Below, in pieces: positions 31,286 to 36,834 of a DNA stretch of 64,000 bases. The stretch covers positions 1-64,000 of the forward strand of contig JABLTI010000003.1 in NCBI GenBank assembly GCA_013166835.1, written 5' to 3'. Each line of letters begins with the position of its first letter. Within the stretch, counting starts at the first letter, position 1. Source of the stretch: Promethearchaeati archaeon. Its GTDB lineage: Archaea > Asgardarchaeota > Heimdallarchaeia > JABLTI01. The notes beneath the pieces were generated by a model. The model ran no database searches, had not been told where the DNA came from, and was given only the letters and a program-made list of their open reading frames with translations. A program made the position numbers and the translations under genes.

Positions 31286-32224
31286 CTAGCATGATTCTTC
31301 ATATTTCTGAAATTCTTCTATTGTGAATGTTCCATTTTCAAATTTCAATGCATGTTGACCACAATTACTGCCAATGTGGTTTTCCTCTAATTCTCCAATG
31401 CTTAGGAGTACATCAAATCCTTTATCTTGAATGGCTTTAATTTTCTGCTTAGCAAATTCCCCTGTTTCAGGAGAAATCATGGATTGAAGACTATGAGCTT
31501 TGGCTATTTCTGTTGGATTTATTGGAGTTATTTTAATGAAGAATTTCTTGGGATCATAGACTTCTAGGAGTCTATCTGGATCAAGTGGATTACCTTTTTC
31601 AGCAGCAAAATTCAAGGTAATCTTCCGATCACCTTTCTGCCAGAACGCTTCTCCATAAGCAGCAATTTCTTCTAATGTCCAGATTTTGTATGGAATAACT
31701 TTTTTCCGGACATCCTCTTCGGTTGAATGAATAGAAAATTGTAATTGGAAATGACCATTAGGATAAAGATCGTTTTTGATTTCTAACATCTCGTCCATGA
31801 ACTTGTTAGCATTACTCGGTGCAATTGTTGATATACAAGGCATTAATCCAGGAGCATTATATAACTCTGGGAGTTTTCTCATAACATCTAAAACATCAGG
31901 GTTGAGAGCTGGTTCACCCATTCGAGCAAATTGAATCTTAAATTTCTCAGCAGGGATTGTTCTATCAGGATAACGTTTGGAAACCATATAATCAATTTGC
32001 TTATACATAACATCGTAAGAAATTTTGCCATGATAATAGGTCCCAGCGTCGCACATAGAGCATTTGACCGGGCAACCATACATCGTTGAAAGAATCAAAA
32101 CCCACTTCATATCTCGAGGAACCGGTGGTTGAAGAGACTCAACAAATTCAATGAATTTGCCATCTTCTTGTGCAATATAGAGTATTGCTAAATCATCACG
32201 CCCATACTTTGCTACGATTTCCAA
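31286..32224 (-). CDS. Radical SAM protein, RlmN/Cfr-related but N-terminally short
   Basis: GCPVKCSMCDA, FARMGEP, QFSIHST, SNCGQ. Confidence 0.88.
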   Translation of the reverse strand: MEIVAKYGRDDLAILYIAQEDGKFIEFVESLQPPVPRDMKWVLILSTMYGCPVKCSMCDAGTYYHGKISYDVMYKQIDYMVSKRYPDRTIPAEKFKIQFARMGEPALNPDVLDVMRKLPELYNAPGLMPCISTIAPSNANKFMDEMLEIKNDLYPNGHFQLQFSIHSTEEDVRKKVIPYKIWTLEEIAAYGEAFWQKGDRKITLNFAAEKGNPLDPDRLLEVYDPKKFFIKITPINPTEIAKAHSLQSMISPETGEFAKQKIKAIQDKGFDVLLSIGELEENHIGSNCGQHALKFENGTFTIEEFQKYEESC

Positions 32225-33403: not shown

Positions 33404-33901
33404 TTATTTTTCAATTAACATGTTCTGACAGACAGGACAAGTCTTATGTTTCACAAGCCATTCTTCGAGATATTTCTTTATGAAATATGAGCTGCAAAAT
33501 GGGCATTGTAAAACCTCATCATCATCCTGTATTTCCGTTTTTGAAATCATACATTTCTCATTCTGAATTGGATAATCAACTTTTGAAGCAATAATTTTCG
33601 CATCACTAGATACTATATCATCCTCTTCCTCAATCGATAATCTTTGAGATCTACTAACAGGTTGTCTGGTTCTAGTAGGGGTTGTTTGTATTCTTGGTGG
33701 ACTTCTTTTCTTTTGTTTCTTGAAGTTTGATACAAAAAGTATTGTTCCAAAAATAAAGAACAATACTCCAAAAATAATGAAAAGATAATCAAAGCTTGAG
33801 CCTTCTACAAATCCATATCTGAACAAACCAAAACCAGCAAGTCCTAGACCTAATATAATTGCAATCCAAGATAAAATACCCTGATACCTCTTAGAAGACA
33901 T
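33404..33901 (-). CDS. 2-TM membrane protein with degenerate C-terminal RING-like domain
   Basis: Two N-terminal TM helices; CMISK...CPFC..YFIKKYLEEWL....CPVC. Confidence 0.75.
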   Translation of the reverse strand: MSSKRYQGILSWIAIILGLGLAGFGLFRYGFVEGSSFDYLFIIFGVLFFIFGTILFVSNFKKQKKRSPPRIQTTPTRTRQPVSRSQRLSIEEEDDIVSSDAKIIASKVDYPIQNEKCMISKTEIQDDDEVLQCPFCSSYFIKKYLEEWLVKHKTCPVCQNMLIEK

Positions 33902-33926
33902 AAACTACTAGTGGGTAACCAAATTA

Positions 33927-34445
33927 TTAAATCTTCTTTATTTTTAGTTTTGCTTGACAAATTGGACATTTACTATTCTTGTTTAGCCACCCAAGTAGAT
34001 ATTTGCTTAGATAATAGTTTTCACAATTGGGACATTGTAAAGCGGATTCATCTTTTCCAATTAGTGTTTTAGATATCATACAAATTATATTTTCTTGTTT
34101 TTCACTAGCTAAAATATATTTAAGTTCATATTCACTAGATTTTTCCTTCTCAAATTGCGCTAAATCAATAACACTTGCTTCGTCAACCATTCTCTCGATT
34201 TCTATATCAGATAATCTCATATCTACTCGAGATCTTGCCAAGATAATCTTTTTATGATCTCTTCTATTAACAGAAAAACCAACAAGACCGACTATAAAAA
34301 AGAAAAATCCGATGCTTAATACAGTAAAAAATTCACTCAATATATCTACAATTGTGAGTAATCCGAAGCTTCCTAGTATAGCTAACACTCCTAATACCAT
34401 TAGGAAAATGAAAAGAATTCTTCTTGCTCTAAACTTCTCTTCCAT
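33927..34445 (-). CDS. 2-TM membrane protein with degenerate C-terminal RING-like domain (paralog)
   Basis: Two TM helices; CMISK...CPNC..YYLSKYLLGWL....CPIC. Confidence 0.75.
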   Translation of the reverse strand: MEEKFRARRILFIFLMVLGVLAILGSFGLLTIVDILSEFFTVLSIGFFFFIVGLVGFSVNRRDHKKIILARSRVDMRLSDIEIERMVDEASVIDLAQFEKEKSSEYELKYILASEKQENIICMISKTLIGKDESALQCPNCENYYLSKYLLGWLNKNSKCPICQAKLKIKKI

Positions 34446-34583
34446 AAAATAATATAGAAAAAGACATTATAAAATCATTCTGTAATTAATTTAGGAAATG
34501 ATTTTCTATAATATAATCATTATATACTTAATTGATAAAAATAACAATCAACAAGAGTCTATTATTATTAAGAGGGAACCATT

Positions 34584-34943
34584 GTGGACCAAGTAAGAAT
34601 CTATGATTTACGATTGAAAGATTGGAGTAGAATTAGAGAGGAATTAACAGAAGAAGTTTACGGGAAATCATTAATCCCAAAAGATTGGTCCAATGTAGCA
34701 ATTTCTCTAACAAAAGTGGAATCAAATGGAGAATTTCGAAATCACATTGATTCATACCATCATGTTTTCTATTTCATGAAAGGAACAGGAACTGGTTATA
34801 TTAACAATGAAAAATATGAAATAAAACCTGAGTTAATTGTAGAAATTCCAGCAGGCATAGATCATGGATATAAAAATACTGGAAAAGATGAGCTAATACT
34901 ATTAACAATAAATATTCCCAATAAAGAAAAAGAAAAGAAATAA
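34584..34943 (+). CDS. Cupin domain protein
   Basis: H.D..HHVFYF..G.G and IPAGIDHG.KN. Confidence 0.88.
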   Translation: MDQVRIYDLRLKDWSRIREELTEEVYGKSLIPKDWSNVAISLTKVESNGEFRNHIDSYHHVFYFMKGTGTGYINNEKYEIKPELIVEIPAGIDHGYKNTGKDELILLTINIPNKEKEKK

Positions 34944-34953
34944 TGGGCATTGA

Positions 34954-36834
34954 TTAAACATCAAAGTCCATCATTATATCTTCGGTACTATCTGCTAAAA
35001 TGTAAGTTGGTTGATTCATATCAGAAGAACTTTTTCTCACAAAGCGAACTGGTGTCTCAATCACATCTAGAAAATCTTTCTTTACAAAATCACTCAAGTC
35101 GATAGGTATACGTATTTCATTGAGATACTTCCAAATGAGATCATATGGAGCTTCTTGATATTTCTCTACTAGTCGAATGATTGGTTGAGCTATCTTTTCC
35201 AATCTTTCATCCAGATACTTCTCAATCTTCCGAATTAGAATGTTCAAAGATTCTTTGTCTTTTGTTGGATTGCGAACTGCTTCTTTGTATATCTCATTAA
35301 AGAACTCTGGATTAATTTCAAGAGCTTGTATAATTGATTCTCTTATGGGTATCTGTTTGTCAAGGATAACTTCGATGTTTGCAAGTCGTCTCATAGATGA
35401 AATAATGAAGCTAAAGCTAAAAGTTGGGTCTTCATTGACATTAAGAGCTCTTAATGCTTTGTTTAACAAGTCTCTGCAGTAAACATAGTTTGCTAATAGT
35501 ATGTTTTCTAAATCTCTGGAACCCATTTTCTGAATGTCTTCATAGATATCATATATTGTTTCATCATTTGTATAGACTACTTTACTCTTTGATAGTAGTG
35601 ATTGTGGTATGCTTCCATCAGTTACTCTTTGTACAAACTTTCTGAAATCATCTCGAGTATGGAGTTGGGCATTAATAGAGACATCTTTTTCCACCAAGAC
35701 ATGATGTCTTCTATAAACATCATCTCTTGTAATCAATATTGCACCAATATCTGATTTCTCCCAAACTTTATCGTAAGCTAAACTACCATAGACCATAATT
35801 GACAACATGTATTCATCTTGTTTTACCTTCTCCAATAAGGAGTCAAAAGCATCTTGATAGTCTTTTACGACAAGTGATCTATCAACATTTGATGGCCCGA
35901 TTTGGGAGGGAACAACATCTTTCGGATCAAAAGAATCCCAACTAAAGTGATACTGGGGCATATGATATTCAATGCGTCCTTTCTTTGTTAATTTTACAGG
36001 AGCGTAGGTTCTTCGTATGATTCTTCTTCTTTGTAAGTAATCCATATCCATGAAATACAAGCCTTTATCTTGAGCATATGTATTTAGTTCCTTTTCAGTA
36101 GCTGTACCATCATTATCAGAGATGAAGTTCAATAATAGTTCAAAATTCTTTAAGGCGTGTTCATCAAGAAACCTGTAAGCTTCTCTTATAGTATATTCTA
36201 TGATCTCTTTTGATGCTGTGCTATTCAGTAAGTTCTCATATAAGGGAGTATAAAAATCTGGATAGAGTTTCTTAGCTTGAAGAATAACTTCTCGTGGTGG
36301 AAAAATACCGTTCATATAACACATGAGATAACCCATCTCACTTAGAGCATGAACTAGAAACCACATAGCATATTCTGGCTCATCTTTTATGAAGAGGAAT
36401 TTTTCAGCTTTGTAGAGGTCGTAATGTGTTGCTCCATGATAAATTACTCTATTTATAGTTTGGTCTTGTCCACTTATTGATTCACTGATATTCTTATACA
36501 AGTCATCAATACTGTTATCTCTGCTAAACAATAGTCTACTTCGAGAAAGGCTTTGATGATAAGCAACTCTTCTTCTTCCAAAGATATTCCTTCTGAAGGC
36601 ATTAATATTATAGATTCCGATGTCAAATGGTATACCGTTTTCAACGACTCTTTTGTACCCTGTGTTTCCTTCCTTTGTTACAACCATGATATTGATGTTT
36701 GATCGTTCATGAACTCTGTTATGTGCTAGACTGCCAAAAAGTATGATTCCTAGCACTTGAGTGTCTTGTTTTGCTCTTTCGACAAAAAATTCTAGGGCTA
36801 CATCATATTTCTCTCGAACTTTAGGATCTTCCAT
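34954..36834 (-). CDS. Internally duplicated pol-beta-type nucleotidyltransferase-like protein
   Basis: Two homologous halves: FGSLAHNRVHERSNIN and YGSLAYDKVWEKSDIG; both end in PV(K/R)....S/G....P.Y. Confidence 0.75.
   Translation of the reverse strand: MEDPKVREKYDVALEFFVERAKQDTQVLGIILFGSLAHNRVHERSNINIMVVTKEGNTGYKRVVENGIPFDIGIYNINAFRRNIFGRRRVAYHQSLSRSRLLFSRDNSIDDLYKNISESISGQDQTINRVIYHGATHYDLYKAEKFLFIKDEPEYAMWFLVHALSEMGYLMCYMNGIFPPREVILQAKKLYPDFYTPLYENLLNSTASKEIIEYTIREAYRFLDEHALKNFELLLNFISDNDGTATEKELNTYAQDKGLYFMDMDYLQRRRIIRRTYAPVKLTKKGRIEYHMPQYHFSWDSFDPKDVVPSQIGPSNVDRSLVVKDYQDAFDSLLEKVKQDEYMLSIMVYGSLAYDKVWEKSDIGAILITRDDVYRRHHVLVEKDVSINAQLHTRDDFRKFVQRVTDGSIPQSLLSKSKVVYTNDETIYDIYEDIQKMGSRDLENILLANYVYCRDLLNKALRALNVNEDPTFSFSFIISSMRRLANIEVILDKQIPIRESIIQALEINPEFFNEIYKEAVRNPTKDKESLNILIRKIEKYLDERLEKIAQPIIRLVEKYQEAPYDLIWKYLNEIRIPIDLSDFVKKDFLDVIETPVRFVRKSSSDMNQPTYILADSTEDIMMDFDV

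Follow-up and report, generated by a model that had tools for sequence, protein, structure and literature searches.

RING ligases form the largest class of ubiquitin ligases. Eukaryotic members of the RING-H2 type, such as Arkadia (RNF111), RNF165 (ARK2C), RNF38 and RNF12, bind two zincs through a cross-brace of eight Cys or His ligands, with ligands 3 and 4 spaced as C-x-H. Reduced forms exist as well: the U-box has the RING fold with both zinc sites lost, and in the SP-RING of Siz, PIAS and Nse2, which are nuclear, soluble proteins acting with Ubc9 and SUMO, the surviving zinc site is site II, made by ligands 3, 4, 7 and 8, and ligand 1 is kept within a C-x-[IL]-[ST] start. The SP-RING is described as a RING variant that co-ordinates one zinc ion (PMC12751080), and plant modified RINGs as having one or two ligands of RING-HC changed, among them the 'RING-S/T' type with Ser or Thr for Cys at ligand 2 and/or 6, within site I (PMC5240574). 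Among archaea, srfp of Caldiarchaeum subterraneum is described as a RING ubiquitin ligase (E3) of measured activity, with a eukaryote-like ubiquitin-activating enzyme (E1), ubiquitin-conjugating enzyme (E2) and ubiquitin, and with ligands 3 and 4 displaced from where the eukaryotic pattern has them (PMC5654768), and a Helarchaeial RING E3 cascade is active and modifies UEV-Vps23 (bioRxiv 10.1101/2023.07.25.550441); both of these E3s appear there as soluble, ubiquitin-operon-encoded, eight-ligand proteins. Here, we examine two adjacent genes, A and B, in a 64,000-nucleotide stretch of DNA (the window; positions 1 to 64,000 of contig JABLTI010000003.1) from a Heimdallarchaeial Asgard archaeon, which encode small membrane proteins whose C-terminal domain resembles a RING with ligands for a single zinc.

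A and B resemble srfp and the Helarchaeial E3 in that an archaeal RING-H2-like domain occurs alongside a eukaryote-like E1, E2 and ubiquitin, and differ from them, as far as the two reports describe their E3s (srfp was compared by its description), in being membrane-anchored, in lying outside a ubiquitin operon and in having five of the eight ligands. They are membrane proteins like the eukaryotic RING-H2 ligases RNF13, RMR1, Hrd1 and gp78, but in contrast to eukaryotic RING-H2 domains their ligands 3 and 4 are spaced C-x2-C, and only one zinc site is complete. The nearest relatives of A and B belong to an uncurated family of small two-helix membrane RINGs from Asgard archaea, the Heimdall group among them, with the eight-ligand pattern C-x2-C-x12-C-x2-C-x4-H-x2-H-x3-W-x6-C-P-x-C, and these match A and B in size, N-terminal hairpin and ligand spacing and, outside three columns, very nearly in consensus. 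The three columns are those of ligand 2, which is Cys in the relatives, and of ligands 5 and 6, which are His; in A and B they hold Ser, Leu or Ile, and Tyr, and therefore site I cannot form. Unlike the plant modified RINGs, A and B have three of the four site I ligands replaced, two of them by non-polar or aromatic residues, and the replacement extends across a whole archaeal subfamily; unlike the U-box, they have an intact site II. A full-text literature search, with subscription journals and supplements outside its coverage, returned no description of an Asgard RING subfamily with a single zinc or a membrane hairpin.

Both genes lie on the reverse strand, A at 33927..34445 (172 amino acids) and B at 33404..33901 (165 amino acids), and the two open reading frames (ORFs) encode paralogs that are 33% identical over 122 residues (BLASTP, E 3e-20). 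The C-terminal motif of A reads CMISK, 11 residues, CPNC, 8 residues (ENYYLSKY), L-LG-WL, 5 residues and CPIC, and that of B reads CMISK, 11 residues, CPFC, 8 residues (SSYFIKKY), L-EE-WL, 5 residues and CPVC; since the motif is shared by descent, the two copies in the window are not independent observations. To assign ligands, the domains were aligned column by column with eight-ligand paralogs, giving 144 rows, 56 of the one-zinc and 88 of the eight-ligand form. In A, the RING-derived domain spans C122-C163 (33957..34082, reverse strand), with site II ligands C138, C141, C160 and C163, and with C122, S125, L146 and Y149 at the site I positions. In B, it spans C117-C158 (33428..33553, reverse strand), with C133, C136, C155 and C158 at site II, and C117, S120, I141 and Y144 at site I. 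The eight-ligand rows have Cys at the position of S120 in 87 of 88 cases, His at that of I141 in all 88, and His (86/88) or Cys (2/88) at that of Y144. All 144 rows have Cys at ligands 3, 4, 7 and 8, so that the domain is distinct from a U-box, which has zero zinc ligands and whose fold is stabilised by polar networks. A and B thus have Cys at ligands 1, 3, 4, 7 and 8 only, short of the eight-Cys/His cross-brace of RING-H2, and in sequence pattern they agree with the SP-RING, which holds its one zinc through ligands 3, 4, 7 and 8.

The residues expected to contact an E2 are I124, W153 and P161 in A and I119, W148 and P156 in B. These positions are as well conserved in the one-zinc as in the eight-ligand relatives: the Ile occurs in 51/56 one-zinc vs 63/88 eight-ligand rows, the Trp in 55/56 vs 87/88, and the Pro in 56/56 vs 86/88, and the consensus sequences of the two groups are nearly identical outside ligand columns 2, 5 and 6. 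When 33 one-zinc sequences with a mean column identity of 27% were compared, C117, I119, C133, C136, Y144, W148, C155, P156 and C158 (numbered as in B) were invariant, and S120 and K121 nearly so; the RING-derived domain is the best-conserved portion of the protein. The feature is therefore real and conserved. The original prediction, made from the letters of the window alone, had described two transmembrane helices and the motif CMISK-x11-CPxC-x8-L..WL-x5-CPxC in both paralogs, with ligands 3, 4, 7 and 8 intact, ligands 2, 5 and 6 replaced (S; I/L; Y) and the E2-contact Trp and Pro kept; the motif is exact, each protein has two hydropathy peaks, the alignment with eight-ligand paralogs agrees at every ligand, and the Ile between ligands 1 and 2 is kept as well.

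The RING fold foreseen in that prediction was examined by modelling the B domain (residues 95-165) in AlphaFold with a 135-row alignment, which gave a predicted local distance difference test (pLDDT) score of 91.2 and a predicted template modelling (pTM) score of 0.78. A Foldseek search of the PDB with this model placed the RING of RNF13 first (E 9.5e-4, template modelling (TM) score 0.66), followed by RNF165, RNF38, RNF12, EL5 and RMR1, and the first U-box appeared at rank 43. In VIA-align, RNF165 scored Z 8.3 (root-mean-square deviation 2.7 over 65 residues) and the Prp19 U-boxes ∼6.1-6.3 (U-box chains up to 6.4); since a Z below 8 may reflect a common arrangement, what gives this comparison its strength is that the top rows are uniform in identity. 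No SP-RING appeared among the 50 structural matches listed by Foldseek or VIA-align, an absence from the matches listed and not the outcome of an aimed test. Because the alignment behind the B model was dominated by eight-ligand rows, full-length A was modelled with 41 one-zinc sequences only. This model (pLDDT 88.7) consists of a helical hairpin, with helices at residues 2-32 and 36-92, and a C-terminal domain with a pLDDT of 92-95 and the same secondary structure as the B domain model, and its best Foldseek matches were RNF38, RNF165, RNF13 and RNF12. By prediction, then, the domain has the fold of the RING class, defined by two loops, short beta strands and a central helix, with top matches at TM scores of 0.6-0.7 and Z up to 8.3.

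Profile comparisons gave a similar picture. Every one of the 33 one-zinc members matches Pfam family zf-RING_2 at E <= 1 (best E 7.9e-6), and 31 and 28 of the 33 match Prok-RING_1 and zf-rbx1, respectively. A profile built from these members found 36 PDB sequences at E <= 0.1, all of them RING E3 ubiquitin ligases, led by Arkadia (1.8e-6) and then RNF165, RNF126, RNF38 and others; the eukaryotic RING-H2 ligases thus provide the best fold and profile matches to A and B, with the Ile/Trp/Pro surface in common. Siz, PIAS, Nse2 and U-box chains were not among the 36. Likewise, the Pfam lists of A and B at E <= 10 (the best 25 of 27 families in the case of B) and the 25 families most often matched by the 33 members do not include zf-MIZ, zf-Nse or U-box, so that sequence kinship with the SP-RING was not detectable in the Pfam lists or the PDB profile search. 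A zinc ribbon was considered and rejected, as its Pfam matches are weak and partial (E 0.04-1) and cover only one CPxC knuckle, while the full-length matches, fold and profiles all indicate a RING.

With A as the query, HMMER was run in full against 1.84 billion cluster representatives and gave 135 matches at E <= 0.001. The pattern C-x2-C-x4-L5-x2-L6-x3-W...C-x2-C (L5 and L6 being ligands 5 and 6) fitted 127 of these, with a gap of 12 residues between ligands 2 and 3 (13 in 4 rows); 8 of the 135 did not fit it. Among the 127, 79 are of the eight-ligand class, with Cys at ligand 2, His at 5, and His or Cys at 6, and 47 lack all three of these ligands, having mostly Ser or Thr at ligand 2, mostly Ile, Leu, Lys, Gln, Asn or Val at ligand 5, and mostly Tyr, sometimes Leu, at ligand 6. 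The single discordant row is probably a register shift. That 79 relatives keep all three ligands and 47 keep none, against one discordant row, indicates that zinc site I is kept or lost as a unit, as would be expected of a family in which the members with eight ligands bind two zincs and the others one. Homology spans the membrane hairpin as well as the RING, with the same ligand spacing, and the best matches from the same genus cover profile positions 1-165. Orthologs of B are 41-83% identical and come from records named Candidatus Heimdallarchaeota or Asgard group archaeon. The one-zinc members form 47 clusters at the 50% identity level, and these metagenomic clusters show that the subfamily is diverse in nature.

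Both forms also occur side by side in the genome of A and B, where a six-frame search found 15 zf-RING_2-like matches, nine with eight ligands and six without site I. The six are A, B, a close paralog on contig C19 and three longer proteins (C97, C138 and C121), and ligand 1 too has been lost in one of these longer proteins. Contigs C208 and C117 carry several of the eight-ligand paralogs in tandem clusters, and one or more lie on C200. The arrays comprise three membrane RING genes at C208:58725-60291 and two at C117:2852-3993, and the family seems usually to grow by tandem duplication. Two further ORFs of the genome, at C142:1457-4507 and C60:4334-6823, encode surface-type proteins of 1017 and 830 residues, each with one membrane helix and a C-terminal zinc ribbon and eight-ligand RING.

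A scan of 400 Asgard genomes with the one-zinc profile matched 242 at E <= 1e-8, mostly through eight-ligand RINGs. Thirty loci were examined, each the best match of its genome, so that lower-ranking one-zinc copies may exist in other families. Seven of the 30 are one-zinc, all from the genus of the window, and 22 are of the eight-ligand type (one with Gln at ligand 6), 4 from the window's family and 18 from other families; in the remaining locus the ligand pattern was not found. Among species-representative genomes, therefore, the one-zinc subfamily looks concentrated in one genus. Trees were built from 64-68 usable columns, leaving out P0001-P0015 (near-copies of B), the own-genome copy C208:58725-59081 and the 8 matches outside the pattern. 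The one-zinc label is strongly clustered on these trees: it changed 2 times when the ligand columns were included and 7 times when they were dropped (64 columns), compared with a mean of 44 for shuffled labels, and the starred branches of the latter tree force only 1 change. A constraint holding the 56 one-zinc rows together gave a likelihood 20.1 above that of the free quick tree and a p value of 0.749 in the approximately unbiased test, so that a single origin of the one-zinc form is not rejected and one loss of site I is possible. These trees and alignments place A and B as a derived offshoot of the eight-ligand archaeal RING family, and the 'intermediate architecture' claimed in the original prediction, if taken in an evolutionary sense, is not supported.

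The N-terminal part of each protein contains two predicted membrane helices. In A, these lie at about residues 10-28 (34362..34418, Kyte-Doolittle peak 2.68) and 39-57 (34275..34331, peak 2.43), inside the two helices of the full-length model, and in B at about residues 9-27 (33821..33877, peak 2.26) and 40-58 (33728..33784, peak 2.75), all on the reverse strand. Segments rich in Lys and Arg are found at the N-terminus and directly after helix 2 in both proteins: helix 2 is followed in A by SVNRRDHKKIILARS, with 5 Lys or Arg, and in B by NFKKQKKRSPPRIQT, with 6 Lys or Arg and 0 acidic residues. By the positive-inside rule, both termini of A and B should be cytoplasmic. The linkers to the RING-derived domain differ, as helix 2 of A runs on in the model as a putative cytoplasmic stalk of ∼35 residues, to about residue 92, and the corresponding stretch of B is basic and rich in Pro, Thr, Arg and Ser. 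A spacer of 25 bp (33902..33926) separates the two ORFs, related loci preserve the tandem with A ahead of B, and the genes are likely co-transcribed. Upstream of A, an AT-rich region of 138 bp (34446..34583), common to A and a divergent cupin gene (34584-34943, from ORFs and a Pfam scan of the flanks), is a probable promoter region.

The genome (3.56 Mb, 85% complete) has candidate partners for an E3, in keeping with the prediction of an Asgard host that possesses its own E1, E2 and ubiquitin: a single canonical UBC-type E2 of 155 amino acids with H76-P-N78 and C85 (C197:31601-32068), a 77-amino-acid ubiquitin with a GG end (C194:760-993), and three ThiF-family E1 candidates. It also encodes a protein like a ubiquitin E2 variant (UEV), of the UBC fold and without the catalytic Cys, in a cluster resembling those of the endosomal sorting (ESCRT) complexes I and II. 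This protein, at C110:18122-18865 (247 amino acids), keeps the His-Pro-Asn motif and carries a coiled coil as its tail. Three small ORFs come after it, reaching C110:20686, and the cluster looks like the Asgard UEV-Vps23/ESCRT-I-II cluster of the literature. Of 12 genomes of the order, 11 have the UBC E2, as do 83 of the 151 genomes sampled from the phylum.

To evaluate E2 docking, the complex of the genome's UBC E2 (30-row alignment) with the B domain was predicted. The B domain is predicted to dock on the E2 in the canonical manner, with an interface score (ipSAE) of 0.72 vs 0.00 for the best of 3 controls; three runs agreed in at least 97% of contacts, and the partner had a pLDDT of at least 83. 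In calibration, 116 of 157 solved complexes but only 2 of 215 mismatched pairs attained the mark used, counts that are only roughly valid here because our own alignments were used. The predicted interface comprises helix 1, P62-F63 and T94-P95-A96 of the E2 and, on the RING side, residues 118-122 (M118 to T122), 138, Y144, E147-W148, 152, P156-V157 and 159, and so contains I119, W148 and P156, which are invariant in the 33 one-zinc sequences. The E2 side of this interface takes in loops 4 and 7, which the Caldiarchaeum study also names as E3-binding (PMC5654768). The model also places two of the substituted residues, S120 and Y144, in the E2 interface, which is a lead and not a finding.

Taken together, we consider that A and B are probably membrane E3 ubiquitin ligases in which a cytoplasm-facing, single-zinc RING recruits an E2, and we give this reading a probability of about 0.6, the activity and zinc count being what we infer and the fold, topology and docking what the models predict; its structural part is stronger than its catalytic part. 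A and B would be small proteins of the cytoplasmic membrane, anchored by a two-helix hairpin, with a C-terminal domain descended from the C4H2C2 RING, complete with eight ligands, that their small Asgard membrane relatives carry. Site I has been lost by the change of ligand 2 to Ser, ligand 5 to Ile or Leu and ligand 6 to Tyr, and its place presumably filled by hydrophobic and aromatic side chains, leaving only site II able to hold zinc, while the predicted RING fold and the Ile/Trp/Pro surface for E2 binding are retained. The domain would then recruit to the membrane the single UBC-type E2, charged with the GG-ended ubiquitin, and promote the transfer of ubiquitin onto membrane or membrane-near proteins, possibly with A and B acting as a pair.

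Several observations weigh against this reading. The alignment behind the first model consisted mostly of eight-ligand rows, and AlphaFold places no metals, so that the zinc count comes from the ligands alone. With a gathering cut-off of 27.3 bits for zf-RING_2 (PF13639), A falls below it at 18.3 bits as a protein and 19.2 bits in the six-frame search, and B is borderline at 25.4 and 27.9 bits. The residue after the last Cys, the linchpin, is Arg or Lys in many RINGs, and in both A and B it is Gln. A Pfam scan of 19 flanking ORFs found no ubiquitin-system gene among them. A is broken or degraded in two of five related loci, and therefore at least A is dispensable in some relatives. Finally, RING and E2 are a textbook pair with many solved structures, and the docking result may reflect memory or likeness and not binding by this particular copy.

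The main rival is that the domain is a non-catalytic RING-like module, which keeps the fold and perhaps binds an E2 or another partner as a regulator or adaptor. Such a module might sequester the E2, or pair with the eight-ligand membrane RINGs in the way of the inactive partners in eukaryotic RING heterodimers. The Gln at the linchpin and the want of a ubiquitin-system gene nearby would suit this role, the nine eight-ligand paralogs of the same genome, several of them in tandem, are possible active partners, and the long helical stalk of A could mediate pairing. In contrast, the Ile/Trp/Pro contacts are conserved to the degree seen in eight-ligand relatives, canonical docking on the E2 is predicted, and the linchpin is Lys or Arg in 38 of the 56 one-zinc rows (Lys 26, Arg 12, with Gln in 11). 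We regard a non-catalytic role as rather unlikely.

Another explanation is that A and B are decaying duplicates, in which the loss of site I reflects relaxed selection on genes that are becoming pseudogenes. It draws on the five related loci, in three of which A is intact; in locus L023 A has an in-frame stop inside the CMISK motif, with the same stop in genome G003 of the Asgard scan, and in locus L026 only a remnant of A is left, with Tyr in place of ligand 7. However, B is intact in all five, with synteny conserved, nine residues are invariant among 33 sequences as divergent as 27% mean column identity, the one-zinc form spans 47 clusters, and the RING-derived domain is the part conserved best. 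We therefore consider decay of the pair very unlikely.

It is harder still to believe that A and B bind two zincs after all, with ligand 1 and unusual ligands such as a nearby Asp or Glu, or the Tyr, completing site I. The Cys of ligand 1 does persist, in 52 of the 56 one-zinc rows as in A and B, and B has an acidic run between ligands 2 and 3. Yet four one-zinc rows have Gly at ligand 1, the acidic run of B is not conserved, and Ser, Ile or Leu, and Tyr are unusual as zinc ligands in established coordination chemistry. Least probable of all is that A and B are true relatives or forerunners of eukaryotic SP-RING ligases or U-boxes, because, although the surviving zinc site is the same as in the SP-RING and the C-x-I-S start resembles the CP[IL][ST] start of SP-RINGs, the SP-RING and U-box families are absent from the Pfam families and PDB matches listed above, RING-H2 domains outrank the U-box in fold comparison, the nearest relatives are eight-ligand archaeal RINGs, and a one-zinc best match occurs only in the window's genus among the 30 loci from 400 Asgard genomes.

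The likeness to the SP-RING that the original prediction had drawn therefore stands for the ligand pattern, in which only site II survives, and that to the U-box for a predicted RING fold with incomplete zinc ligation, but kinship with either is not supported; as the nearest relatives by sequence and predicted fold are RING-H2 ligases, the likeness to the SP-RING is best taken as one of parallel loss. The candidate partners differ too, being a UBC E2 and a GG-ended ubiquitin in this genome in place of the Ubc9 and SUMO of SP-RING ligases.

The reminiscence of ligases of endoplasmic-reticulum-associated degradation (ERAD) that had also been proposed does not extend beyond membrane anchoring, since Hrd1 and gp78 are mid-ranking structural matches and the neighbouring genes are metabolic. 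The flanks encode metabolic or housekeeping proteins, namely DegV, UvrA, oxidoreductases, the cupin and a protein resembling a double nucleotidyltransferase. All five related loci conserve the gene order cupin (-), A, B, DegV (-) and a C-x3-C-x2-C protein, and four of these loci are from metagenome-assembled genomes of Heimdallarchaeota. The fifth, L026, comes from a record titled Candidatus Bathyarchaeia archaeon, and has the Heimdall-type order of cupin, RING and DegV with a B ortholog 38% identical; its RING-domain sequence is also found in genome G010 of the window's genus, and the label Bathyarchaeia may stem from a mistake in binning or naming. The C-x3-C-x2-C protein is an ORF of 312 amino acids at 31286-32224 (-), with a motif (CPVKCSMC) as in radical-SAM enzymes and no Pfam match at E <= 1e-5; it adjoins the DegV gene in the five related loci, only its start being visible in L026. 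On the other side, at 34954-36834 (-), lies a gene for a protein of 626 amino acids, which matches the Pol-beta-type nucleotidyltransferase family PF18765 in its N-terminal stretch. Near residue 350, a comparable GSLA/ERS.I-like segment may reflect an internal duplication, and the gene is syntenic with the RING pair in loci L022-L025.

Because the one-zinc form is found mainly in one genus, and RINGs with a modified site I are already known in eukaryotes, the scope of these observations is limited. Within that scope, A and B represent a conserved archaeal subfamily that drops zinc site I as a unit and keeps the E2-binding surface, beside eight-ligand paralogs in the same genome. The membrane anchor makes them candidates for the ligases by which membrane cargo would be marked in the ubiquitin-ESCRT pathway of Asgard archaea. 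The more specific proposal, that A and B are an active one-zinc ligase pair at the membrane which works with the single UBC E2 and tags membrane proteins for the genome's ubiquitin-binding ESCRT machinery, is a tentative one, possible but short of an even chance. If true, it would represent an independent archaeal re-invention of the SP-RING design beside its eight-ligand parents, and a natural experiment in which a RING gave up a zinc site with its function kept, as a first step towards a U-box. The system is small and contained in one genome, with two RING domains, one E2, one ubiquitin and three E1 candidates, and A and B together with their own-genome eight-ligand paralogs form a clean natural pair for the role of the first zinc site. 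They thus bear on how one-zinc (SP-RING) and zinc-free (U-box) ligase domains arise.

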